64,000 nucleotides of DNA from Nitrospirota bacterium (GTDB lineage Bacteria > Nitrospirota > Thermodesulfovibrionia > Thermodesulfovibrionales > JdFR-86), in the NCBI GenBank assembly GCA_963721805.1, contig CAVRJY010000001.1, positions 416,001 through 480,000 on the forward strand, written 5' to 3'. The notes under the pieces were generated by a model. That model searched no databases. It was not told the origin of the DNA and saw only the letters and a list, made by a program, of their open reading frames with translations. Below are positions 1 to 64,000 of the stretch, one piece after another. The stretch's first letter is position 1. Each line of letters starts with the position of its first letter. Both the position numbers and the translations under genes were made by a program.

Positions 1-48
1 CCTGACAAAATAGTATTGAATGGTTTGTCTTATCACTTACCTGTTTTT

Positions 49-225
49 AAAGCGCTCCGAATCGCTTGATACGTCGTTGGGCATCGAAGACTCGCCCTCT
101 ATGTACGTCACAGTACACCATCGGGCGGTCTTCTCGCCCTGCCTTGTCTGAAGACGATTTGGGCGCGCTTTCGGGGGTTGGTCGCGGCTCCGCCGCTGGA
201 CCCCCGCTTCCATAAGGTCAACGGT
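49..225 (-). repeat. Long-hairpin repeat copy R1 (subfamily A). Strand convention for all R copies: + = head GCCGTTGACC read first
   Basis: Near-identical to 821-1005, 48147-48326 and 63123-63303; AAAGCGC...GCGCTTT outer stem, GTAC-N6-GTAC apex, ends GGTCAACGG. Confidence 0.95.
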
Positions 226-235
226 TTGTGTTCTT

Positions 236-262
236 ATGTGATATAATGTACACAAGGAGGCA
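236..262 (+). promoter_or_regulatory. Extended -10 promoter (TGaTATAAT) and SD of the TA operon; TGTG...CACA may be an RHH operator
   Basis: TGTGATATAATGTACACAAGGAGG just upstream of ATG 269. Confidence 0.6.
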
Positions 263-268
263 CAAGCC

Positions 269-532
269 ATGCCACAGACCACCACGATGACCGTCAGGAT
301 TCCATCAGACGTAAAGGACAGGCTCGAGCGTCTGGCCCGATCCACGGACAGGACGAAGGCCTACATCGCGGGCCGGGCAATAGAGGATTACCTCGATGTG
401 CAGGAATGGCAGGTAAGCGCCATTAGCGACGCGGTGCGCGAGGCTGACTCTAAAAAAGCCGTCTTCCTGTCACACGCAGAAGTGGAGTCAAGGGTCAATA
501 AGAAGATCATCGCCACCGGAAAGCGTAAGTGA
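269..532 (+). CDS. CopG/ribbon-helix-helix antitoxin
   Basis: TMTVRIPSDVKDRLERLARSTDRTKAYIAGRAIEDYL RHH pattern; AGGAGG SD; overlaps the toxin gene. Confidence 0.85.
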   Translation: MPQTTTMTVRIPSDVKDRLERLARSTDRTKAYIAGRAIEDYLDVQEWQVSAISDAVREADSKKAVFLSHAEVESRVNKKIIATGKRK

Positions 533-810
533 GGGTTCAGTGGCTTACTAGCGCGGCGGATGACATGGAACAGCTCATTGACTACATTGCCGCTGATAAT
601 CCCTCAGCCGCCGCCACCGAGGCCCGGAAGGTCATGGAGGCCATAAGGCAACTTGCCGAGCATCCCGCTTCAGGCCGTACGGGCCGGGTGTTCGGCACGC
701 GTGAACTGGTCCTGCCTCCATATATTATTGCCTATAGGGTCAAGGGCGAGGCTGTCCAGATACTTCGCATACTCCACTCCGCCCGGAGATTTCCAAATAA
801 GCTGCCGTAG
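529..810 (+). CDS. RelE/ParE family toxin
   Basis: WLTSAADD...YIAADNP...GRTGRVFGTRELV..PYIIAYRV..ILRILHSAR signature. Confidence 0.9.
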   Translation: MRVQWLTSAADDMEQLIDYIAADNPSAAATEARKVMEAIRQLAEHPASGRTGRVFGTRELVLPPYIIAYRVKGEAVQILRILHSARRFPNKLP

Positions 811-820
811 CCCTCTTTTC

Positions 821-1005
821 AAAGCGCTCCAAATCGCTTGATACGTCGTTGGGCATAAAAGACTCGCCCTCTATGTACGTCTCAGTACACCATCGGGCGG
901 TCTTCTCGCCCTTCCTTGTCTGAAGACGATTTGGGCGCGCTTTCGGGGGTTGGTCGCGGCTCCGCCGCTGGACCCCCGCTCCCCTGTGGTCAACGGCATA
1001 GATTA
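821..1005 (-). repeat. Long-hairpin repeat copy R2 (subfamily A)
   Basis: Direct repeat of R1; starts about 10 nt after the toxin stop. Confidence 0.95.
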
Positions 1006-1034
1006 AAAGTTATGAGTGTGCAAGGCGGCGGGGT

Positions 1035-1085
1035 GCTTAAAATTCTCTGGCATGCGCAATGGGGTTGTGGTATCCTTGGCACATG
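1035..1085 (+). promoter_or_regulatory. Conserved motif P copy 1 (extended -10-like TGgTATCCT followed by ATG)
   Basis: 44/51 nt identical, by hand alignment, to the reverse complement of 63856-63906. Confidence 0.75.
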
Positions 1086-1105
1086 AAACTGCCAAGGTTC
1101 GGGAA

Positions 1106-1594
1106 ATGACAGGAACTACGCCTAAACGTCATGTTCTCCTCATTGTTGCCGTCTCGTTCACAATACTTCATTTCATCATAACCTCTCTTGTCGGGCATTA
1201 CATAGCAATTCAAGTTGGATCCATTGCCGGCCAGTCAGTTGCTAATATGTTGAAAGAATCCACTGGAAACACTTCGTCTTCAGATAATGAGATCAATGAT
1301 CGCCTTCAGGCAATGCGGAATAATATCGACGAACAAATATCCAGATGGAAGCTGCCAGTGATACTGATATCGTTACCGATCAGGCCGATAATCCAGCCCT
1401 TGCTTAGTGTTGCGCGTAAAGGTTGGATTTATGGGCCGGTTGTTTCTCATCAGCTTTCTAAGGAGCAGGCAGCTACGCGCCTTGTTATCATTGATACTGG
1501 CGTTAAAATCTTAAACTCACTTTCGTTTGGACTGTTGATTTATTTGGGCTGCTGGCTATTCTATAAACGTAAACGCGTAATGACAACAGAATAG
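1106..1594 (+). CDS. AT-rich hypothetical membrane protein (orphan-like)
   Basis: ORF track 1016..1594; ATG 1106 overlaps (ATGA) the stop of an 8-codon ORF starting in motif P; hydrophobic segments; lower GC than flanks. Confidence 0.7.
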   Translation: MTGTTPKRHVLLIVAVSFTILHFIITSLVGHYIAIQVGSIAGQSVANMLKESTGNTSSSDNEINDRLQAMRNNIDEQISRWKLPVILISLPIRPIIQPLLSVARKGWIYGPVVSHQLSKEQAATRLVIIDTGVKILNSLSFGLLIYLGCWLFYKRKRVMTTE

Positions 1595-1623
1595 ACGATT
1601 CAAAGTCCCCTACACAGATAACT

Positions 1624-1681
1624 CAAACAAGCCGTTGACCTTGGGGTGCGGGGTCCAGCGGCTGGGCCGCACTTAACCCCC
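1624..1681 (+). repeat. Long-hairpin repeat R3, head segment only
   Basis: GCCGTTGACCTTGGGGTGCGGGGTCCAGCGGCTGGGCCGC..TTAACCCC nearly duplicates the head of R4 (2111-2170). Confidence 0.9.
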
Positions 1682-1861
1682 TCAGCAGGCCCCGAGTTGC
1701 CTCCTGATAAGGTCGCAAAGCGTGTTTTTGATTTCCGCATGTCTTGGGATAGGGGCCTTGCGGCCATTGGTGGGGTTCAGATAAATGTCATGGTTCGCGC
1801 CATGCCTCTTAAGCACGCAGCCTTTATCCAGCAACTCCCGGATCAGTTCTCCGCGCTTCAA
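1682..1861 (-). CDS. hicA: HicA family toxin (59 aa, absent from the ORF track)
   Basis: Hand translation from TTG: MKRGELIRELLDKGCVLKRHGANHDIYLNPTNGRKAPIPRHAEIKNTLCDLIRRQLGAC; start overlaps the hicB stop. Confidence 0.9.
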   Translation of the reverse strand: MKRGELIRELLDKGCVLKRHGANHDIYLNPTNGRKAPIPRHAEIKNTLCDLIRRQLGAC

Positions 1862-2064
1862 ACCTCTACGCCTATCTCCTTGCGCTCGACGGCCCCTACC
1901 GGCGGGGCTTCTTCGTCATCCATCAGGAGCTGGTAGACCTCCCTGATGTTGTTTTCGAGTTCGTCGAGGCTCTCGCCCTGCGTGAATACGCCGGGGACCT
2001 CTTTGAGCCTGCCCACGTACCATGTGTCGTCCATCCAGTATTCAAGGGTAAAGTGCCTGAGCAT
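1858..2064 (-). CDS. hicB: HicB family antitoxin (short form)
   Basis: WYVGRLKEVPGVFTQGESLDELENNIREVYQL motif; AAGGAGG SD; TGtTATAAT upstream. Confidence 0.9.
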   Translation of the reverse strand: MLRHFTLEYWMDDTWYVGRLKEVPGVFTQGESLDELENNIREVYQLLMDDEEAPPVGAVERKEIGVEV

Positions 2065-2110
2065 CGCGCACCTCCTTAGTTGAATTATAACAGATGGCCG
2101 TCAGGCGCTT

Positions 2111-2293
2111 CTAATCAAGCCTTTGACCTCGGGGTGCGGGGTCCAGCGGCTGGGCCGCTATTAACCCCGCAAAGCGCGATAAATCGTGTCAGACTAGGAG
2201 CCTGCGAGGAAAACGTCCGACGGTGTACTGAGACGTACATCGAGGACGGATTTCCGAGCGGTGACAACGTATCACGCGACTTTAGCGCGCTTT
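2111..2293 (+). repeat. Long-hairpin repeat copy R4 (subfamily B)
   Basis: Same fold with covarying arms GGAAAACGTCC/GGACGGATTTCC; close to R6. Confidence 0.9.
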
Positions 2294-2306
2294 CAGAGAG
2301 CGTTCC

Positions 2307-2897
2307 CTATGGACATTTGGTTTCCGCGATCTCTCTGGCATACCACGCTATCGACTTGATACAGTCCAGCATCTCAATGAACAACCCCGACGCGACCGGC
2401 AGGCACAGCCCCTCGATCAGCCGGTCCTCGTGCGCCGTGGCCGCGTCGTCGGCCGCCTTCTCGACGACCGTCTCGGTCCTGATGACGTGCAGCGCCCCCA
2501 GGGCCGAGCCGGTCAGCACGTAGTCCTTCGTATGCACGATTATGTCCCTGAGGCGCTCCATGAGGTAGCCGAGTTCCTTATATGCCTTGTCGCTGAACAG
2601 TATCTGGCCCGAATGCTTGGCCGCGATGGCCGCCTCGATGCGCACCATATATCTGAGCATCTGCTCTAGCCGCGTGACGGTCGGGATCAGGCAGGCCACG
2701 TTGGGGTCCTTCCTGACGTCCTTGACCAGGGCCTCGACGAGCATGTGAAGCCCGCCCTGCATCTCGTCGAGCCTGGCCCTCGCCCCGGCGATCAGGGGGG
2801 CGTCGAACCTCTGCAGCGACTTGTGCGATGCGTCGAGCCCCTCGGTCAGGGCCGGGAAGAAATCCTCCATTATGGCGGCGAATGCGGTCTTGGCCAT
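2307..2897 (-). CDS. PhoU-like helical domain protein
   Basis: AGGAGG before MAKTAF; HEDRLIEGLC...SGLFIEMLDCIKSIAW resembles the PhoU-type tail of Na/Pi cotransporters. Confidence 0.6.
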   Translation of the reverse strand: MAKTAFAAIMEDFFPALTEGLDASHKSLQRFDAPLIAGARARLDEMQGGLHMLVEALVKDVRKDPNVACLIPTVTRLEQMLRYMVRIEAAIAAKHSGQILFSDKAYKELGYLMERLRDIIVHTKDYVLTGSALGALHVIRTETVVEKAADDAATAHEDRLIEGLCLPVASGLFIEMLDCIKSIAWYAREIAETKCP

Positions 2898-3131
2898 GGC
2901 TGCCTCCTGTACGCGGTTCGGTTCAAGTCCGGGCGTTTCTGCCCTCAGCCCGATCATATCAGATAACCCGCCGGGACGCAAAAACCCCCGCAAACGCCGG
3001 GGGCTGGCTGTCTATTAGGATCAATCATCTATCCATTAATATAATTTATTTGACCGCCGCGCGCTAGGTATATTAGGCTTAAACGCATTTTCCCCGCACA
3101 GATAATGCAAACAACTCATAAGGAGGATCGA

Positions 3132-4316
3132 ATGAAGAAGTACGACACGCCTCTTCTGGACGAACTGGAAAAGGGGCCCTGGCCGAGCTTCGTGACCGAG
3201 ATCAAAAAGGCCGCGAAGACTAACGAGGCGGCCAACGATGAGCTTGGCCAGCTCGAGAAGTCCTACAGGACGAAGCGCGGCTACTGGAAGCACGGTGGCA
3301 TCGTCGGCGTCCTCGGCTACGGCGGAGGCGTCATCGGCAGGTATTCCTCGCTCGGCGAGGAGTTCCCCGGCGTTGCACATTTCCATACCGTCCGTATCAA
3401 CCAGCCCAGCGGTTTCTACTACACCAGCGCCGCACTTCGCGAGATCTGCGACATATGGGACAAGTACGGCTCGGGCCTCACGAACATGCACGGCTCCACC
3501 GGTGACCTCGTGCTCCTCGGCACCAAGACCGACGCCCTCGAAGACATCTTCGCCGAGTACTCCTCGCGCGGATGGGACCTCGGGAGCTCAGGCTCCGCCA
3601 TGAGGACCCCGAGCTGCTGTCTCGGAAAGTCCCGCTGCGAGTGGGCCAACATCGACACCATGGACATCTGCAACCACTTCACCCAGGTGTTCCAGGACGA
3701 GATGCACAGGCCTTCCTTCCCCTACAAGTTCAAGATCAAGGTCGCCGGCTGCGCGGTTGACTGCGTGGCCTCGATAGCTCGTTCCGACTGCTCCATCATC
3801 GGCACCTGGAAGGGCACCATCGCCGTCGACCAGGCCGCCGTGGCGGACTATGCCAAGAAGGGCATGAACATCAAGGCCGAGATCATCGACATGTGCCCGA
3901 CGAGCTGCATGAGCTATGACGGCAAGACCATGACGATCAACGACAAGGAGTGCTCGCGCTGCATGCACTGCATCACCAAGATGACCAAGGCCCTCAAGGC
4001 CACCGGCGAGAAGGGCTGTTCGATCCTCGTGGGCTCCAAGGCCCCGATCGTCGTCGGCTCGCTCTTAAGCTGGGTCATCGTGCCGTTTATGAAGGCCGAG
4101 AAGCCCTACACCGAACTCGAGGACCTGATCAAGAAGATCATCGAGTGGTGGGATGAGCACGCCAAGCCGCGCGAGCGCATCGGCGAAGTCATCGAGGTAG
4201 AGGGCATGAGGAGCATGCTGGAGTTCATCGGCATACCGCCGATGCCGCAGCAGGTCAAGGCCCCGCGCAAGGACCCGTTCTTCTTCTGGAGCGAAGAAGA
4301 CCTCACGAAGTACTAA
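3132..4316 (+). CDS. dsrA: Dissimilatory sulfite reductase alpha subunit
   Basis: TPLLDELEKGPWPSFV, WKHGGIVGVLGYGGGVIGRY, CLGKSRCE, FPYKFKIKVAGCAVDC; AGGAGG SD. Confidence 0.98.
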   Translation: MKKYDTPLLDELEKGPWPSFVTEIKKAAKTNEAANDELGQLEKSYRTKRGYWKHGGIVGVLGYGGGVIGRYSSLGEEFPGVAHFHTVRINQPSGFYYTSAALREICDIWDKYGSGLTNMHGSTGDLVLLGTKTDALEDIFAEYSSRGWDLGSSGSAMRTPSCCLGKSRCEWANIDTMDICNHFTQVFQDEMHRPSFPYKFKIKVAGCAVDCVASIARSDCSIIGTWKGTIAVDQAAVADYAKKGMNIKAEIIDMCPTSCMSYDGKTMTINDKECSRCMHCITKMTKALKATGEKGCSILVGSKAPIVVGSLLSWVIVPFMKAEKPYTELEDLIKKIIEWWDEHAKPRERIGEVIEVEGMRSMLEFIGIPPMPQQVKAPRKDPFFFWSEEDLTKY

Positions 4317-10442: not shown

Positions 10443-10724
10443 ATGGGACGCTATCTGGTGCTGAGCAACCTTACCGAAGAGGGCCGCAAGACGATACAGA
10501 AGAACCCCGAACGCATACTGGCCGTCAACAAGGAACTCGAAAAGATGGGCGTAAAGGTGGTGGAGCAGTACGCGCTGCTGGGGCCCTATGACTTCGCGAG
10601 CGTAATCGAGTGCCTCGACAACGAGACCGTGATGCGCATGATCGTGGAACTCGGCGCGCGCGGCACCCTGAACCTCATGAGCCTCCCGGCCATCCGCGTC
10701 GAAGACCTGATAAAAACCCTCTAG
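10443..10724 (+). CDS. GYD domain protein
   Basis: YLVLSNLTEEG...YALLGPYDF pattern; GGAGG SD. Confidence 0.8.
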   Translation: MGRYLVLSNLTEEGRKTIQKNPERILAVNKELEKMGVKVVEQYALLGPYDFASVIECLDNETVMRMIVELGARGTLNLMSLPAIRVEDLIKTL

Positions 10725-10769
10725 GGGTGCCACGGGCACCTCTCCCCCGCATAGCAGGAGGTCACGGCG

Positions 10770-28977: not shown

Positions 28978-31726
28978 ATGATACGCAAGAACGCTTCATT
29001 CATAGGCATACTGATGCTCCTGCTAATGCCCTCGCTGATGGCGGCTGTTTTCACGGGCTGCGGCGGCTCGGGCAACAGCGCCTCGTCGGGCGGCTCCTCG
29101 GCTGCGGTCAGCTCCGCGTCGCTGGGCAAGATCGGTATCCAGGGCCTCGTCAACTCAGCGTCCGACCTCCTCATCACGAACGCTGCGGGCGACCAGTCCG
29201 AGCCGGACGTCGCCTATGACACGAAACACCCGCAGTATTTCATCGTATGGACCGACAACAGATTAGGTGCATCTCGAACAGCGACATATACGGCGCTCTG
29301 GTTAACGGCCTCGACAATTCCGTATCGATGGACCCTTTCATTATCTCGGACGACGCTTCAACGGCCGACCAGGTCCACCCCGCAGTTGCTATAACAGCGG
29401 ATACGCACAAGTTCCTCGTCGTATGGGAGACAGCAGAAACGGCTATTCCCAGATATAGCGGCCAGTTCGTCGACGGCCTGACCGGGACAAGCGGCGAGGG
29501 CGCCAACTTCCCGGTAACCTCGGCTTATACTGCTGACCAGGACGAAACATATCTAGAACCGATTGACGGCAGCGGTATCACAAACGCTTTGACCGGCACC
29601 GTCACAAACACCACGACCTACCAGGCCCAGCATACGCCGTCGGTTACTTACAACACTGTAAAGTCCAAGTTCATGGTGGCATGGCAGGAGAGCACGGACG
29701 CCGACTATCAGTATTTGTATGTAACAGATGTGTGCACCGAATTCGCATTGTTCCCTGAGAAGTATCTCAGGGCTGCCACGGCAGACAATATCATGGTGCG
29801 CTACGCGGTGCTCAATCGTCCTCAGACATAGAGCTGCCAGACGGCAATGGTGACCTTCCAAGGGCCAATTTCAGCTCGCTTGTCATTACTGACGGCCCAC
29901 ATATACAGACAGCTGCTCCGCGACATCAAAAGCAGGCAGACCGTTATAAAATTACGACGCTCATGGGCAGCGAGTCCTCTCCGAGGATAGGTTTCCACCC
30001 CACAGACGGCGTCCCTATCATTATGTGGTCGGGCAAGAAGAAAGCAGTTACATACACAGTCAAGTTCGCTGGCACTTATGACAGCTGGGACCGACAGTTG
30101 GAAATGGACGGAAACCGGCCCTACGTTCACAACGAGCGACGCGGATACCTACAGGAATATCTATCTCAGGAAGGACACTCTTGGGCTCGTTACTGATCTG
30201 GCCCTTACGCCGGATTCTACTAATTTCTATAATCCGTCCTTCGCGCCAGCGGTCGACAGGCTGCTCGTTGTTTGGGAAGCTGCTTCAACTAACAGAGATA
30301 TCTATGGCGAGTTTGTAGACTATGACCATTAGTCCGCTGAGCTTCACGCCTCTCGATCTCTACCGCGCAGGGCAACCAGACCAACCCGAAGGTTGCTTAC
30401 GAATCCAGCAATGACAGGTTCTTCGTGATCTGGGAGGACGGCCGCAATCTCTCGGTCAACCCCTCGAACATGGACGTATACGGCCAATTCATAGACTCGA
30501 GCGATACGCTCTCGGGTGCGAACTTCATTCTTGACCACGAATACGAGCAACCAGTCCCAACCGGCCCTCTCGTTCGCGACGACACGGAGTCACAGAAGTT
30601 CCTGGTAGGCTGGAAGGACGGCCGCAACGCCTCGCTTCCGGGCTCACCGACCGGGCAGTCGGACTTGTACGCCAACCTTTGGAGTGGCTCAACCGCACCG
30701 AACCTCGTTGTGGCGGACAACGCCACCCCTGCGTGCCGCTTTATACGCAGTCACACGACTTCGGCGGGCTCGTAAACGGGGCCGCCCGTTACGTTTCGTC
30801 ATCAGGATATACAATAACGGCAACGCCCCCTTAACATACGGAACCTTTACGGGCGAGCGCAATCGTAAATGTCGGAGTGGCCAACAGCGCCAGTGCCGTT
30901 TAATATCGACGAGCACGATCCCGACAATGATCCTCGCCGGTGAGCTACACCACCATAGGCGTGCAGTTTCAGCCCGGCCGGTCGGCCCCAATCTACAGCG
31001 GCATCGCTCACGATCAACAGCGACGGCGGCACAACAGTGCTCCAGTTCACCGGCTCGCTGATCTCGGGCACCGCAAGTCCGATCTCATCAACGTAGCCTC
31101 ATCATCCGTCCCAACCGGTACGTAGAACACGACCTATACTGGCACTGTTGTGGCTAGCGGTGGGGTTATCCCCTATACTTTCAGCATAAGCTCGGGCACG
31201 CTACCTAACGGTCTTTCAATCGAAGGCTCAAGCGGCGTGATCAGCGGCACACCTACAGCGAATGGCACGAACAATTTCACAGTAATGGTGACTGACGCAA
31301 TAGCTGCCCATGCCAGCCAGTCAATTCAGCGTCACGATCACCGGTGCACCTTCTGGCGGCGGTGGTGGCGGCGGCGGCGGTGGCGGTGGCGGCGGAGGCA
31401 GCAGTAGCGGCGGGAAAGAGGCGTGCTTCATAGCCACGGCTGCGTACGGGAGCTACCTTGACCCGCACGTCATGGCGCTGCGCGTGTTCCGCGACAGGTA
31501 TCTGCTAACGAACCCGGCAGGCCGCGAGTTCGTAGCGTTCTACTACCGCAACTCGCCGCCCATAGCGGACTTCATATCACAGCACGAGGCGCTCAGGACG
31601 GCCACGCGCATGGCCCTGACGCCCATCGTATACGGCGTCCAGTACCCGCTGTTCGGCTTCGGCATGATCGCCGCCGCCGGAGCGGCCCCGCTGATAAGGC
31701 GGCGTCTCAGGAAGCGCCAGAAGTAA
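28978..31726 (+). pseudogene. Fragmented large surface lipoprotein with repeated W(E/K)DGRN-type units, a He_PIG/Ig-like domain, a Gly linker and a CFI-box-CTERM domain
   Basis: Coherent protein text spread across frames: FTGC lipobox, [61 protein letters not shown]. Confidence 0.75.
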
Positions 31727-31744
31727 GACTCCAGTCCAAAACCT

Positions 31745-31780
31745 GCGGGCCGGGTCGCGCGTAAGCGCCCCGGCCCGCTT
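31745..31780 (+). terminator. Hairpin after the CFI-box gene
   Basis: GCGGGCCGGG...CCCGGCCCGC followed by TT. Confidence 0.5.
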
Positions 31781-32024
31781 GCACGTTCAGCCCCCCGCTT
31801 ATCACGCTTGCAGCAAGAGAAGGGCCTGTGGCCCCCCGGCCCGCTTGCACGTTATTTATCACGCTTGCGGTAGGGGAAGGGGGCAGTCGCCCCCCGGCCC
31901 GCTTGCACGTTCAGCCCCCCGCTTATCACGCTTGCAGCAAGGGAAGGGGCCTGTGGCCCCCCGCCCGCTTGCACGTTAGTTATTTATCACGCTTGCGGTA
32001 GGGGAAGGGTGCAACTGCCCCTTC
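31772..32024. repeat. A-B-A-B tandem repeat (AB period 124 bp)
   Basis: GCCCGCTTGCACGTT units starting near 31772, 31838, 31896 and 31963, each followed by TTATCACGCTTGC and a G/C hairpin. Confidence 0.9.
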
Positions 32025-32056
32025 CAGATCGCCAACGCGCTATGCTATATTATCGG

Positions 32057-32848
32057 ATGAAATTCCTGAGCATTGTGGTTGCATGTCTGCTCGCAATTTC
32101 CTGCGGCGGCGGGGGTGCGGGCTCCGGCGGCGGTGGCGGCAACGGCGGCTCGAGCGACACCGGCACGGTCGTGACCGCGAGCGTGGTGCCCGGCTCCGTC
32201 AACGTGGACTACTGCTCTGACGAGGGTGAGACCGCCTCGGCCACGCTTACGGCCGACCTCATCAACTCCTCCCTGCCCTCAAACACGCTCACGACCGAGA
32301 GCTACCGCGTCACGTTCACGCCTCTGACGCACGGCGCGCCGGTCATAAACGGCGGCGTATTTTCGGACAGCCGCACGCTGCCCGCAAGCGAATTCCCAGT
32401 CTCATTCATCGGTTCGTCCGATAAGCTTGCGCTAAGGGCGGCCCTGGCGAACTCCGGGGCGGCGTATTCGTACACCGCGAGGTACAGGTTTTCGGGCGAG
32501 GACCTTTACGGCACCTCATGGAGCGCGGTCGGGAGCTTCGCGTTCAACCTTGGCAAGTTCTCGGCCTGCCCGCTTTCGATATATCCGCCCGCGGCTACGG
32601 TCACAGGCATCAACAACCCGGACTCCGACCTGGGTGACGACGTCCTCTTTAGGGTCAGCGGCGGCACGCCGCCCTTTACGGTATTTTCCGACAGCGTGCT
32701 TCTAAACTCCCCCGGGACGCTCCCGGACGGGATAACGAGCTTCATCGCGGACCCCAATCAGGCTACCGAGCCCACCATGGTTACGCTCACCGTATCGGAC
32801 TCCCTCGGCGCCCTGAGCACGGCAACCCTCACGGTCACATCGCCCTGA
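32057..32848 (+). CDS. Hypothetical lipoprotein, beta-rich/Ig-like
   Basis: MKFLSIVVACLLAISC lipobox, Gly linker, VSGGTPPFTV...LTVSDS. Confidence 0.75.
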   Translation: MKFLSIVVACLLAISCGGGGAGSGGGGGNGGSSDTGTVVTASVVPGSVNVDYCSDEGETASATLTADLINSSLPSNTLTTESYRVTFTPLTHGAPVINGGVFSDSRTLPASEFPVSFIGSSDKLALRAALANSGAAYSYTARYRFSGEDLYGTSWSAVGSFAFNLGKFSACPLSIYPPAATVTGINNPDSDLGDDVLFRVSGGTPPFTVFSDSVLLNSPGTLPDGITSFIADPNQATEPTMVTLTVSDSLGALSTATLTVTSP

Positions 32849-32921
32849 GGGGGTGCCACGGGCACCTCTCCCTATTCGCGGGGTCATTGACCCCTCTCAC
32901 TATTCGCGCCACTGCGCTCAT
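32849..32921. repeat. REP-like hairpin plus two inverted TGAG..GCGAATA units
   Basis: GGGGTGCCACGGGCACC; TATTCGC...CTCA at 32873 and 32901. Confidence 0.75.
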
Positions 32922-32925
32922 CTTT

Positions 32926-33116
32926 TAATCAATGCCGTTGACCGCTCGCACGGTTACGCAGATGAAACTTAAAGCGCGAGAAATCGTCTTCAGACAAGGG
33001 GTGCCACGGGCACCTTTTACTTTAAAGGAGGGGCCCGTGACCCCCGCAGGTGTACTGAGACGTACTCCGAGGGAGATTTTCGGATGACGCAGTATGAAGC
33101 GATTTGGTGCGACTTT
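32926..33116 (+). repeat. Long-hairpin repeat copy R7, interrupted by REP-like hairpins
   Basis: TAATCAATGCCGTTGACC head, AAAGCGCG, CAGACAAGG, inserted GGGGTGCCACGGGCACC, GTACTGAGACGTAC apex. Confidence 0.85.
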
Positions 33117-40385: not shown

Positions 40386-40397
40386 GAGCATTTTTTC

Positions 40398-40668
40398 AAA
40401 GCGCTCCAAATCGTTTGATACGTTGTTGGGCATCGAAGACTCGCCCTCGGAGTACGCCCAGATAAGAAGTGACCTTCTTCAAAGCGCGCCAAATCGCTTG
40501 ATACGTCGTTGGGCATCAAAGACTCGCCCTCGGAGTACGCCCAGATAAGAAGTGACCTTCTTCAAAGCGCTCCAAATCGCTTGATACTGCGTTGGGCATC
40601 GAAGACTCGCCCTCTATGTACGTCACAAGACGCCCCCCGCGCCCCACGAGGTCAAAGGCATTGATTAG
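40398..40668 (-). repeat. R8: three tandem half-copies (83-bp period) of the long repeat plus its head
   Basis: AAAGCGC at 40398, 40481 and 40564; ends GGTCAAAGGCATTGATTAG. Confidence 0.92.
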
Positions 40669-48061: not shown

Positions 48062-48146
48062 GGTGAATAACCCTCCATCTTTTGGTTTAAATTGAACTCC
48101 AATTATCGCTTACAACCCCTTGGCATTTCAAGGTCGCGCACAGATG

Positions 48147-48326
48147 AAAGCGCGCCAAATCGCTTGATACTGCGTTGGGCTTCAAAGACTCGCCCTCTAT
48201 GTACGTCACAGTACACCATCGGGCGGTCTTCTCGCCCTGCCTTGTCTGAAGACGATTTGGGCGCGCTTTCGGGGGGCACGGAAGAAGTTCGCCCCCCGCG
48301 CCCCACGAGGTCAACGGCTTTGATTT
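48147..48326 (-). repeat. Long-hairpin repeat copy R9 (subfamily A)
   Basis: Core near-identical to R1. Confidence 0.95.
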
Positions 48327-48700
48327 GAGGCACGTTCGGATGCGCGGCTTAGGTATAGTTATGCATTCCGCGCGCGTGCGCGCGCATTTTTTTTAGAGCG
48401 TTCAAATGAACAAACAAAACAAGCTTTAACCCTGCGGAATTTCATTGCTTTTTGGCGACCTCCGTGTTCATGCGTTCAGAAACAGTTTTCACTCTGTCCA
48501 TCGGTCACTGTCGTTACTTTCAGCGCCATCAAAATGAGCATATCAGCCTCATCCCGTATTGAAGCACATCGAAATGAAAAATGCGATAACCTATGGTTTA
48601 TATATAAACCGAAGTTCATAGGAAAAATTGTCCCCCGTGCGTTTTCTATTAACTTTCGATTAACTGTGGTTAATGAGGGCGGAAACCACTGTGATAAATA

Positions 48701-48740
48701 TCTGGAATACTCTAGGCGGTTGTGGTATCTTTGAAGCATG
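48701..48740 (+). promoter_or_regulatory. Conserved motif P copy 2
   Basis: TCTGGAATACTCTAGGCGGTTGTGGTATCTTTGAAGCATG; 36/40 identical to copy 3. Confidence 0.75.
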
Positions 48741-48874
48741 TTATTAATTAGCGCAGCGGAAGAAATTATCCTGCTTCTATGAGAGCCAGTCATCCATAAT
48801 TATGTCGATTGGAACAATCAATCTATCCTCGCTGAAGATATTTTTTAAATCACAGTTATTTGAGGAAATAACTC

Positions 48875-49114
48875 ATGCTTATGGGTTTTGCGACTTTTTT
48901 TGGCTATGGTACATACATGCCAGCAGCGCTTGTTAATCTTCCATATACTTGGCAATACGTGATGTTTTGCTTATCAGGCATGATACCCGGGTTGATTTGC
49001 ATGATTAAACCAAAGACAGTTTGGTTTGTGATAACACTTCCTTTTACAATTTTTATAGTCGCACTCGACATCAGGGTTGGGATTTATGCGATAAGTGAAT
49101 ATTTGCACCGTTGA
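48875..49114 (+). CDS. AT-rich small hydrophobic hypothetical protein
   Basis: GAGGA SD; hydrophobic; lies between motif P2 and R10. Confidence 0.5.
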   Translation: MLMGFATFFGYGTYMPAALVNLPYTWQYVMFCLSGMIPGLICMIKPKTVWFVITLPFTIFIVALDIRVGIYAISEYLHR

Positions 49115-49174
49115 TTTATCACGTGTAACATTGCCATCAAGTATCAAAAATTAGAAAAAGCGACTGAAGATTAT

Positions 49175-49343
49175 CTAATCATGCCGTTGACCGTTCGCAC
49201 GATTAGACAGAAGTTAAACTAAAGCGCGATAAAGCGCGTCAGACAAGGAAGGGCGAGAAAACCGCCCGACGGTGTACTTGGGCGTACTCCGAGGGCGCGT
49301 CTTTGAAGCCATGACGCAGTATCACGCGACTTTAGCGCGCTTT
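49175..49343 (+). repeat. Long-hairpin repeat copy R10 (A/B mosaic)
   Basis: CTAATCATGCCGTTGACC head; B-type outer arms with A-type inner arms. Confidence 0.9.
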
Positions 49344-49351
49344 AAAAAAGC

Positions 49352-49927
49352 CTACGAATTCAGCTTCTTCAAGACCCACGCGAAATTGTCGCCCAGATTG
49401 CGCATCGTTTCGATGCCTTCCGTGTCATTGGAGACCTCGCCGGGATTCCTGCCCACGCCGATGTTCCAGTACGACGAGCCCGGCATCACCATCTGAGCCT
49501 GCAGGAAGAAGAAGTTCATCGAACTAAGCACGGTCGTGGCACCGGCCCTGCGCTCCGCGCATATCGACGCGCCGACCTTGCCCTTGAACATCCAGTCGTT
49601 GGCGCGCGAGACCATCCCGGCCCGTTCGATTAACGCCTTCATACCGGCCGACATGTCCGCGAAGTAAGAGGGCGACCCTAGTATTATGCCGTCCGCGGAG
49701 AGCATCGCCTCTATGCACTCGTTTACGATGTCGCCCTTTACGGCGCAGCGTTTGTCCTTGTGCTCGAAGCACTTAAAACATCCTATGCAGCCGCCCGGAG
49801 CCCGGCCCGCGAGTTCCAGCAGTTCTGTCTCTATGCCATTGACGCTTAACCGCTCGAATACCGTGTTTATCATCGTCGCGGTGTTGCCGCCCTTGCGCGA
49901 GCTTCCGTTGATAGCTATAACCTTCAT
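49352..49927 (-). CDS. Iron-sulfur flavoprotein (flavodoxin-like)
   Basis: INGSSRKGGNT, CIGCFKC-X7-C, LGSPSYF; AAGGAGG SD. Confidence 0.92.
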   Translation of the reverse strand: MKVIAINGSSRKGGNTATMINTVFERLSVNGIETELLELAGRAPGGCIGCFKCFEHKDKRCAVKGDIVNECIEAMLSADGIILGSPSYFADMSAGMKALIERAGMVSRANDWMFKGKVGASICAERRAGATTVLSSMNFFFLQAQMVMPGSSYWNIGVGRNPGEVSNDTEGIETMRNLGDNFAWVLKKLNS

Positions 49928-63083: not shown

Positions 63084-63122
63084 TTCTCATTCCCCGTCTG
63101 CTGCGCCGCGCCTAACCCCCGC

Positions 63123-63303
63123 AAAGCGTGCGAAATCGCTTGATGCTGCGTTTGGGCTTCAAAGACTCGCCCTCGAAGTACGTATCAGTACGTCGTCGGG
63201 CGTTCTTCTCGCCCTGCCTTGTCTGAAGACGATTTGGGCGCGCTTTCGGGGGGAGAGGATAACGGAAGCCCCCCGCGCCCCACAAGGTCAACGGCTTGAT
63301 TAG
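63123..63303 (-). repeat. Long-hairpin repeat copy R13 (subfamily A)
   Basis: Same core; ends GGTCAACGGCTTGATTAG. Confidence 0.93.
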
Positions 63304-63348: not shown

Positions 63349-63783
63349 TTAGTAGCTTGGAGGCTTATCTGTACAAAAAACGGAAGGCGTTGCTTTAAAT
63401 ATATCTTTGACATCAATAGGCAGCGCAAGTGTAAAGGGCTGATGACTAAGATCCTTTGCGTAATTCTCAAGAACAGTATATGTATATACGCCGCCTTGCG
63501 TGTTCGCGATATCTAATATGACGCTTGAATTTACTATATCAACTTTAGCAGCATTTACGGCTCTTCCCCGACGAAAATCAAAAATCATGCTCTTTCTTCC
63601 GTTAAGGCTGAAAATTAATACCGCTTTGCCCGAAGCTGTTGCACATGCTGTATAAAAAACAGGCGTCTTGGTTTGTTGTAGCTCAGCAAGGTAATTATCA
63701 GCAACAATATTAAACACTTCATCCTGTCCAAGTGACACACCTGTTGCAAGAAACATGAACACCAAAGCTATGAGAGATTTCAT
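63349..63783 (-). CDS. AT-rich hypothetical exported protein (orphan-like); in-frame upstream ATG at 63858 within motif P
   Basis: MKSLIALVFMFLATGVSLG signal peptide; low GC. Confidence 0.7.
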   Translation of the reverse strand: MKSLIALVFMFLATGVSLGQDEVFNIVADNYLAELQQTKTPVFYTACATASGKAVLIFSLNGRKSMIFDFRRGRAVNAAKVDIVNSSVILDIANTQGGVYTYTVLENYAKDLSHQPFTLALPIDVKDIFKATPSVFCTDKPPSY

Positions 63784-63855
63784 AACAAAAGGTGACGGGT
63801 CTATTTTTCTATTGCCCTTTAAATGGCGCAAGCCAGTCATCATCCCATTGCGCAT

Positions 63856-63906
63856 CATGCTCCAAAGATACCACAACCGCATTGAGTATGCCAGAGAATT
63901 TAAAGC
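63856..63906 (-). promoter_or_regulatory. Conserved motif P copy 3
   Basis: Reverse complement GCTTTAAATTCTCTGGCATACTCAATGCGGTTGTGGTATCTTTGGAGCATG. Confidence 0.75.
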
Positions 63907-63927
63907 GAATGCCCCTATTTATTAACT

Positions 63928-63961
63928 ATAGTTAGTCGAAAGTTAGTAGAAAACGCACGCC
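63928..63961. repeat. 34-bp direct repeat, copy 2
   Basis: ATAGTTAGTCGAAAGTTAGTAGAAAACGCACGCC. Confidence 0.85.
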
Positions 63962-64000
63962 TACAAAATAATTTGCCAGATATAAACCAAAGTTTGGTGG

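Follow-up and report, generated by a model that had tools for sequence, protein, structure and literature searches.

Acquired genes are often silent for want of signals that a new host can read. Among described systems that join genes to such signals or carry them between repeats, putative mobile promoters are highly similar non-coding sequences upstream of non-homologous genes in one genome, formally at least 50 nucleotides (nt) at 80% identity or more within -150 to -50; the mechanism of their spread is unknown and some ride on repeats such as Correia, ERIC and REPIN (Nijveen, Matus-Garcia and van Passel 2012, PMC3575422). In class 1 integrons, according to the part of one account available to us, ORF-11 begins in attI1 and runs across the junction into the cassette, which supplies its stop codon, and the cassette is translated through termination-reinitiation coupling (PMC8876359). 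The accessible portions of further reports describe dif modules of Acinetobacter plasmids, where accessory genes including toxin-antitoxin pairs lie between inversely oriented short sites with the recombinase presumed to be encoded elsewhere (PMC6449649, PMC13141974), and mobile insertion cassettes or units bounded by miniature inverted-repeat transposable elements (MITEs), in which inverted repeats enclose passenger genes but no transposase (PMC3913671). Here we describe a short motif, P, and a structured repeat, R, in a stretch of 64,000 nt (the window; C1:416001-480000) from a Nitrospirota genome assembly of 2.78 Mb in 9 contigs (C1 to C9; GC fraction ~0.60). Positions 821-1681 of the window contain a copy of R (R2), motif P, a low-GC gene of 162 codons and the head part of an inverted copy of R (R3).

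An initial annotation of the window read this piece and two further loci as a gene-capture and expression platform. Part of that description stands, namely a recurrent oriented architecture, an apparent expression signal joined to different cargo at the start codon and one cargo replacement, and the kinship with integrons does not. Our analysis suggests that P is probably, though far from certainly, a reused ('mobile') core promoter together with its start codon, heading seven unrelated accessory genes within R-bounded, replaceable islets. The anatomy of these loci, the copy number of P, its restriction to islets, its reading-frame geometry and one replacement of cargo are direct observations on the assembly.

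Results

Motif P and its genomic copies

Motif P has the form TGGNAT-N7-GNGGNTGTGGTATC...CATG, is ~45 nt long and has as its 3' end an ATG that is invariant in 7/7 copies. Six genomic copies are strict and one is diverged: P1 lies at C1:417048, P2 at C1:464703 and the diverged P7 at C1:72607, and the minus strand carries P3 (C1:479893), P4 (C2:66212), P5 (C4:139539) and P6 (C2:283516), the last heading a gene for a P-type ATPase of 822 residues. Identity between loci is 83-96%. BLAST gives 40/45 for P1/P3 and 36/40 for P2/P3, and a longer extension of P1/P3 gives 45/52, close to the 44/51 and 36/40 first counted by hand.

A 27-nt pattern with 17 fixed bases, TGGNATNNNNNNNGNGGNTGTGGTATC, matches the genome six times and never when read backwards, and a weight matrix built from six copies finds seven matches above 14 bits (the lowest real one, P7, at 28.2 bits) and none in the reversed genome, so that a chance origin of P is excluded. 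A 17-nt core searched with up to 3 mismatches returns 12 genomic matches, of which 6 have the whole motif. The pattern TGGNATNNNNNNNGNGGNTGTGGTATC is absent from 389 other genomes of the class, and a longer exact P pattern has no match in a collection of species-representative genomes, own genome left out, which argues that P is real, rare and, as far as the searched collections reach, private to this lineage.

P2 and P3 share the element order of the first locus (R, P, low-GC gene, R head). All three loci of the window are as first described, with the same motif before three unrelated low-GC genes whose cargo has no DNA or protein similarity, and with a repeat head behind each gene in a fixed relative orientation. 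The head, GCCGTTGACC, begins 36, 68 and 53 nt past the gene stop at P1, P2 and P3; the corresponding distance is 63 nt at P4 and ~260 nt at P7. Some details needed correction. An inverted upstream copy of R, noted at two of the loci, is present at all three, the third just beyond the window end, and a 135-nt module, U, that precedes P at the second and third loci had been missed.

P1 to P5 and P7 each lie at the edge of a low-GC segment of 0.6-1.2 kb (GC 0.39-0.47) closed on both sides by inward-pointing R heads (GGTCAACGGC). The left head lies 17 nt (P7), 47 nt (P5) or 50 nt (P1) from P, and at P2 to P4 the motif comes ~22-26 nt after module U, at the end of an arm composed of R, a module S and U. 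At P5 an IS200 element is inserted between the gene and the R head. P6 stands 3-4 kb away from each R of a head-to-head pair that spans 7.7 kb and also holds a sensor gene and an IS481-like copy; the ATPase gene of P6 (GC 0.67) was at first read as native, an interpretation dropped as P6 also sits inside such a pair. All 7/7 copies of P fall within head-to-head R intervals (<8 kb; n=57; 4.0% of the genome), for which the naive chance is 2e-10, and the orientation of P, unrelated low-GC gene and repeat head recurs at 6/6 islet-edge copies. The proposed co-occurrence of P and repeat heads is thus borne out genome-wide, and the original observation stands, now for 7 loci instead of 3.

Conservation 5' of TGG fades into an A/T-rich stretch. 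On the 3' side it stops at ATG except between P3 and P4, which share a 62-nt block (88.7% alike) that extends ~45 nt past the ATG; the statement that similarity stops exactly at CATG holds at no fewer than five junctions, that is at least five, and gives way at this pair. By eye, an 8-nt pair of terminal inverted repeats is present around the P3 block and absent in P4. The 45 nt shared by P3 and P4 past the ATG (window 63858-63810; C2:66177 onward) could fold over the AUG codons as a hairpin in which one change is compensatory, and such a hairpin could serve as a translational switch.

The linkers between U and P (22-26 nt) are unalike between loci, though U and P are each 83-96% alike, which argues for selection on P itself. 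In a tree of 34 S-U arms, those of P2 and P4 fall in one well-supported clade and that of P3 in another, forcing at least two changes, and P is also present at loci that lack any S-U arm. Since arms of two subfamilies and loci without S-U all carry it, P appears to be a module independent of its arm. This bears on an alternative origin of P, in which a small non-autonomous element (the R-S-U arm or part of it) would have inserted upstream of resident genes, with P as the outward-facing promoter at its end. Insertion sequences and Correia-type elements do insert upstream of genes already present. Such an origin would agree with a similarity that ends at one exact nucleotide, with the fixed orientation of P after R or U at 6/7 loci, and with promoter-carrying repeats already known (PMC3575422). 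However, the unrelated U-P linkers imply that U and P are not one contiguous element, and the occurrence of P on arms of two subfamilies and also without arms speaks against it too.

Reading frames behind P

The ATG of P opens the main open reading frame (ORF) at P3 (169 codons), P5 (92 codons) and P6 (the 822-residue ATPase). At P1, P4 and P7 it opens upstream ORFs (uORFs) of 8, 31 and 9 codons before genes of 162, 186 and 252 codons respectively, and in each the TGA stop of the uORF overlaps the ATG of the cargo gene as ATGA. At P2 a 14-codon uORF starts from P's ATG and the gene, of 79 codons, starts 137 nt after that ATG. Three ATGA overlaps among four uORF cases are hard to obtain by chance, and we take them to mean that ribosomes start at the ATG of P. 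The true start of the P1 gene is position 1106, because the Met of the coupled ORF is also the first residue of four homologues. No Shine-Dalgarno sequence usefully spaced from P's ATG could be seen by eye; GGAG, where it occurs, is 1 nt away. This fits a transcript that starts at or just before the ATG.

Cargo genes behind P

Among the first five loci the cargo genes share no DNA or protein similarity beyond modules S, U and P, and no pair of cargo proteins scores better than E 0.01, motif-region translations excepted. Pfam and PADLOC give no match for any of the six islet cargo proteins, and the sole PHROGs match is a marginal one to the P4 cargo (E 0.006, function unknown). The four homologues of the P1 protein are metagenomic, 54-60% identical and all start at the same Met; a homologue search with the P3 protein found none. 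Hydrophobic segments occur in the products of P1, P2, P3, P6 and P7 (simple hydropathy window), and inspection by eye shows the P5 product to be clearly hydrophobic. In the family, 2/10 genomes have an orthologue of the P6 ATPase, at an identity of only 42-46%, so that the P6 promoter region is not comparable across the family.

Promoter-like features of P

P reads best as an expression signal rather than a recombination site, and two promoter readings suggest themselves, both of which would place the transcription start at P's ATG or up to ~10 nt upstream. In the first, 7/7 copies have, by eye, a -10-like hexamer (TAT..T) ending 6 nt upstream of the ATG, with TG two bases before the hexamer in 6/7, and the mRNA would be leaderless. 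In the second, P would be a sigma-54-like promoter. The sigma-54 consensus has GG and GC elements 10 nt apart (TGGCAC-N5-TTGC type), and a GG-N10-GC element with its GC 20 nt before the ATG is found in 6/7 copies, P1 having GG instead of GC; rpoN is present in the genome, and neither an activator nor its upstream site was recognised. P6 forms the last 38 nt of a 130-nt divergent intergenic region in which no Shine-Dalgarno sequence is seen by eye, and because it fills the end of that region little room is left for another core promoter. Under either promoter reading, ribosomes would initiate at P's ATG, which would be the gene's own start or the start of a short uORF, and where the uORF stop overlaps the cargo ATG the cargo would be translated by coupling. 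Promoter activity, the sigma factor involved and the route by which P and cargo were joined are what we infer from this arrangement.

Several points weigh against a reused promoter. The uORF of P2 is not coupled to its 79-codon gene. The sigma-54 reading fails at P1 and puts the start site unusually close to the ATG, and a consensus sigma-70 scan lists P at none of the three window loci, since its -35 hexamer, TGGCAT, matches at 2/6 positions. The sequencing runs listed include no RNA run that contains the stretch. To our knowledge, promoters are rarely 80-90% conserved over 38 nt before unrelated genes without recent copying or an extra binding protein, and neither has been identified for P. 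The sharp right edge at CATG, seen at no fewer than five (at least five) independent junctions, is also what a recombination joint or an element terminus would produce. P is moreover carried by only 7/57 head-to-head intervals, which implies that it is not needed for islet function; it is not a general feature of islets.

In another reading, P would be no promoter but a conserved RNA 5' leader (a regulator site, a processing site or a structured switch) transcribed from further upstream, for example from U. In its favour, conservation over 38 nt is longer than that of a usual core promoter, the sigma-70 scan does not flag P, and the hairpin over the AUG codons in the extra 45 nt of P3 and P4 has one compensatory pair (GCGC/GCGC vs GCAC/GUGC). 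Yet Rfam returns only a tRNA at the gathering threshold and nothing at E up to 1 over 1-2400 and 48100-49400, P1, P5, P6 and P7 have no U upstream, the terminator-like hairpin of S points towards U and P, and the ATG of a leader would have no usable Shine-Dalgarno sequence (by eye) even though the frame geometry says that it is used. A leader of this kind strikes us as quite improbable.

Repeat R and the islets it bounds

The P cassettes form a subset of a genome-wide architecture in which R sets its tail against the stop codons of core genes and its head decamer, GGTCAACGGC, towards low-GC cargo. R is composed of a 125-nt hairpin, B, a small variable hairpin, A, and the head decamer, which is unpaired and lies at one end only. 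The DNA fold of R2 has an energy of -42.3 kcal/mol (z -4.8), and across 72 aligned copies compensatory changes occur at 6/23 predicted pairs. A profile search finds 225 copies of B in the 2.78 Mb, 191 of them full length and 157 of those with a head. The decamer is near-invariant across diverged R subfamilies. Next to the head stands either S-U (41 copies) or a tandem of small hairpins like repetitive extragenic palindromes (REP; 25 copies), a mosaic similar to that of bacterial interspersed mosaic elements (BIMEs). The REP-like units, GCGAATAGTGAGAGGGGCC-N4-GGCCCC, follow R heads in tandem at window 10717-10746 and 32843-33020 and at 25 heads genome-wide.

Module S has 56 genomic copies, always between an R head and U, with repeated GTTCGGATG motifs and a GC hairpin plus T run flagged as terminator-like (48369-48385) that faces in the direction of U and P. 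Module U is a 135-nt AT-rich sequence of two subfamilies (34-35 genomic copies) with two near-perfect palindromes, GGTTTATATATAAACC and TTAACTATAGTTAA, and may be an operator or upstream activator site. P lies downstream of only 3/35 U modules; the other shared downstream module is an IS200 insertion (2 loci). R-S-U DNA is found in 0/40 relatives, save for a 37-nt GC hairpin in one of them (G013), and the exact R core motif has 0 matches in species-representative genomes, own genome left out.

Consecutive heads less than 4 kb apart are arranged head-to-head in 40 cases, in tandem in 26 and tail-to-tail in 5. The genome holds at least 52 R-bounded islets, and 52 units have inverted R copies less than 4.5 kb apart. 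Median GC is 0.603 (genome-like) on the tail side of R and 0.50 on the head side, and an ORF of at least 100 codons ends within 45 nt of the tail in 88/157 copies. Tail-to-tail intervals contain ordinary core genes and head-to-head intervals low-GC cargo, and the two kinds alternate. Islet cargo includes restriction-modification genes of NgoMIV, MmeI and Mrr type, KAP NTPase, protein kinase, Abi_C, HEPN/HepT and toxin-antitoxin genes, GNATs and SRAP, as well as insertion sequences. The only recurrent short non-coding modules inside the 52 islets are P and palindromes derived from an IS481-like element. Two head-to-head pairs are near-empty, with 13 and 69 nt between heads; in the empty dimer at C5:25199-25212 the 13-nt gap gives a 10-12-10 palindrome that is only suggestive as a dif-like site.

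Cargo replacement between conserved arms

Four small contigs (C9 as a whole, C7, C8 and C3) are 80-95% identical to C1:844383-857787, C1:798234-810559 and C1:1327954-1347918. They probably represent a co-binned sister lineage or strains, an old segmental duplication being conceivable, and offer strain comparisons within the assembly itself. Over C1:844383-857787 the identity of C9 is 80-88%, and in it a solo R, an islet's left R and, on the right, the arm U-S-A-B occupy matching positions. The arms enclose 1,618 nt in C1, with DUF5677 and HepT among the genes, and 1,479 nt in C9, where the genes differ and include one for DUF4019. GC is 0.44 in either cargo and a 60-nt patch is all that they have in common; the two contigs cease to match 20-21 nt past the head and match again from the edge of U. 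Because C1 and C9 (~85% identical) keep the arms but carry different cargo, the space between R arms is replaceable, as seen at one islet. The swapped genes at orthologous loci that the initial annotation anticipated are therefore real, but in an islet that contains no P; no variant contig covers a P locus. The comparison does not tell homologous recombination in the repeated arms from the action of a site-specific enzyme and is compatible alike with both. P and its cargo may likewise have been joined by homologous exchange through the repeated arms or by a head-specific enzyme.

Search for an enzyme

Neither a tyrosine recombinase nor an HUH/Y1 gene of the REP-associated (RAYT) type, both suggested as candidates to seek beside the repeats, was found there. 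The seven PF00589 genes include none within 3.2 kb of any R, the nearest lying at 3.2 kb and the others at 13-81 kb, and the RAYT/HUH search (PF01797) returned only six identical copies of an IS200-type tnpA. No integron integrase was found, the best TIGR02249 score being 68.8 bits against a cut-off of 265.

These results bear most directly on an integron-like, site-specific capture, in which P would be an attI-like platform with the crossover just after CATG, R heads would be attC-like, and a recombinase encoded elsewhere would move single-gene cassettes. Much of the anatomy would be expected of it: the right edge of similarity is sharp at CATG at five or more (at least five) independent junctions, the single-gene cassettes are compact and end 36-68 nt before an R head, the decamer hardly varies between diverged R subfamilies, cargo has been replaced between conserved arms, and a uORF across the junction resembles ORF-11 of attI1. 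Besides the missing integrase and the distance of tyrosine recombinases from R, however, the flanking R copies are inverted, so that recombining them would turn the cassette round instead of excising it; P stands at no constant distance from the head (17, 47 or 50 nt, or by way of S-U), P6 is remote from either R (3-4 kb), P is carried by a minority of islets (7/57) and no individual copy of R shows the paired ends (R''/R') of an attC. We consider capture by such a route unlikely.

An enzyme supplied by an autonomous partner of R was also sought. An IS481-like element of 1,200 bp is present in ~10 copies (C2:405488-407122, C1:669362-672152, C1:960875-964634 and ~7 more) within GGAACYGGTTCC palindromic repeats. 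R-bounded islets contain three of the copies, and other islets contain solo blocks of the palindrome. The element was rejected as autonomous partner of R, its own ends being unlike those of R. Two IS200 elements are inserted in module U directly after TAAC (C1:42862 and C4:147069), and two more copies lie inside islets (C4:138498-138929 and C1:1252007-1252438), one of the two separating the P5 gene from its R head. No autonomous partner with R-like ends was found among the IS481-like and IS200 elements, whose ends differ, other transposase families not having been searched. Around the 52 R-bounded units there is no target-site duplication of 7 nt or more, the longest strings shared by the outer flanks matching a shuffled control, although duplications of 2-4 nt are possible. 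The lack of such duplications, and of a transposase with matching ends given that the IS481-like and IS200 elements have their own, counts further against P as the terminus of an inserted element, an origin to which we attach little probability.

The three window loci and their surroundings

At the left end of the window a full copy of R, R1 (44..227, plus strand), with long hairpin B, small hairpin A and head GGTCAACGGT, points its tail towards the upstream gene. Between R1 and R2 stands a toxin-antitoxin pair on the plus strand (269..810), a parD-like gene (269-532) and parE (529-810), matched by Pfam RHH_1 and ParE_toxin. The full copy R2 (816..999, plus strand) has a tail that starts 6 nt past the stop of parE, and it turns its head, GGTCAACGGC (988-997), towards the P1 cassette. 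P1 itself, TGGCAT...GGTTGTGGTATCCTTGGCACATG, occupies 1041..1085 on the plus strand, with TGG at 1048 and the ATG at 1083-1085; the 8-codon uORF from this ATG (1083..1109, plus strand) ends in the TGA that overlaps the cargo ATG as ATGA, and the cargo gene (1106..1594, plus strand; 162 residues, GC 0.44) encodes 3 hydrophobic segments and belongs to no Pfam, PADLOC or PHROG family. The cassette is closed 36 nt after the stop by the inverted R3 (1631..1681, minus strand), which had been taken for a long-hairpin repeat and comprises the head and A part only, with no long hairpin. On the minus strand, hicA (1682-1861) and a hicB-like gene (1858-2064) form a second toxin-antitoxin pair (1682..2064) between R3 and R4, a full inverted copy (2117..2298, minus strand) with its tail against the stop codon of a core gene of 228 codons (2307-2993).

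The left arm of the P2 islet consists of the full copy R9 (48142..48320, plus strand) followed on the same strand by S and U (48334..48676; S at 48334-48533, U at 48534-48676). P2 comes ~25 nt after U (48696..48740, plus strand; TGG at 48703, ATG at 48738-48740) and its 14-codon uORF (48738-48782) precedes the cargo gene (48875..49114, plus strand), which encodes a hydrophobic 79-residue protein of no family (GC 0.39). R10, inverted (49181..49348, minus strand), closes the islet 68 nt after the stop codon. The P3 islet reads on the minus strand. Its module U (63920..64000) runs off the window end, with S and an inverted R following at C1:480206-480440; P3 lies at 63856..63901 (TGG at 63893, ATG at 63858), and the 169-residue cargo ORF (63349..63858) starts at P's own ATG (63858), with a signal-peptide-like segment from residue 26. 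R13 (63118..63297, plus strand) closes this islet downstream of the minus-strand gene, 53 nt after its stop codon.

Assembled contigs of four sequencing runs were compared with positions 1-4300. One run has exact low-depth pieces, including 1057-1207 across the joint of P1 and cargo, and may stem from the source sample; the other three give no cover over the toxin-antitoxin and P1 cargo parts, and a joint of 999 to 2222 in one contig of one of these (X2), with 37 nt on its shorter side, is too short to place. We base no conclusion on these contigs. Metagenome contigs queried with the 228-residue neighbour protein yielded a sole match, one distant locus at 44% identity.

Just past the cassette cluster, at 3105-4316, lies a gene whose translation resembles by eye the alpha subunit of dissimilatory sulfite reductase (dsrA-like), because of which the host is probably a sulfur-cycling bacterium. 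Elsewhere in the window, 40396-40632 holds an unusual partial-repeat array, where the 5' half of hairpin B occurs three times in tandem as 83-nt copies and one A/head part comes after them, and 31331-32156 holds GGC-rich triplet repeats and 62-nt tandem units (31765-32021) unrelated to R.

Discussion

Our results describe one short signal, apparently a promoter with its start codon, attached to seven unrelated foreign genes, with frame arrangements that would pass ribosomes on to the cargo. The expression logic is that of an integron platform, yet no integron is present. The signal sits within a wider organisation in which a polar structured repeat separates core genes from replaceable islets rich in restriction-modification, abortive-infection and toxin-antitoxin genes. 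A bolder model may be formulated, in which the R head is the docking site of a trans-acting recombination system that swaps single-gene cassettes at dozens of sites beside core-gene stops. P would then be its leaderless-mRNA expression adaptor, with the ATG as the joint and the cargo completing the coupling ORF as in ORF-11 of attI1, and the whole would amount to a dispersed integron analogue that works without an integrase. We regard this model as unlikely. If a dedicated mechanism does exist, these loci would represent a new gene-capture route in an uncultured sulfur-cycling lineage and a compact natural expression adaptor. If there is none, they would offer a clean natural case of promoter reuse whose origin is traceable by strain comparison.

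Literature searches on such repeats in Nitrospirota and on mobile or leaderless promoters returned nothing specific, the repeat sequence itself not having been searched, and the system is best placed by comparison. With class 1 integrons, as far as the available part of the account of Pc and ORF-11 goes, it shares a fixed promoter and start codon at the junction, given here by P, with the cargo supplying the rest of a short ORF. Unlike an integron, it has no IntI, attI or attC, its loci are scattered and form no array, each cassette has its own P where an integron has one Pc platform for an array, and the R copies around cargo are inverted (40 head-to-head vs 26 tandem) rather than direct. R also differs from attC in being a long hairpin plus a small hairpin with an unpaired head decamer at one end only. 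The three defining features (intI, attC sites and a single platform promoter) were each tested and none was found, so that membership of the P/R system among integrons fails, and the initial annotation's integron-like system gives way to cassettes that each carry their own P between inverted R copies.

The alternation of head-to-head islets with tail-to-tail core blocks recalls dif modules, within what the accessible portions of those reports describe, as do accessory genes, toxin-antitoxin pairs among them, enclosed by inversely oriented copies of a site, and a recombinase that would be encoded elsewhere. By the same descriptions, R differs from the 28-bp XerC/XerD sites in being a structured repeat of 170-200 nt with a 10-nt head, in which no Xer-type core was recognised, the host dif not having been compared, and R loci are chromosomal and beside core-gene stop codons, unlike plasmid modules. 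The 52 units bounded by inverted R resemble MITE-bounded units and mobile insertion cassettes as these appear in the part of the source at hand; they depart from them in having no target-site duplication, in that no autonomous element with the same ends was found, and in the strong polarity of R, with heads inward (40 head-to-head vs 5 tail-to-tail). R is also unlike REP/BIME and REPIN-RAYT systems in that no RAYT was found, in a unit far longer than REP and in its polar association with foreign DNA, and like them, and like Correia and ERIC, it is an abundant intergenic hairpin (225 copies) with a mosaic of modules and compensatory changes that keep its stem.

The closest likeness in sequence arrangement is to putative mobile promoters, since P recurs, much alike, in front of non-homologous genes, its seven copies heading unrelated cargo. 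P is 40-52 nt long and, as it lies at -38 to +3 with the start codon included, it falls outside the formal interval, and the 50-nt, 80% criterion, given for such promoters. P differs from them also in being confined to repeat-bounded islets and in being linked to its cargo, at 3 loci, through an ATGA-coupled uORF.

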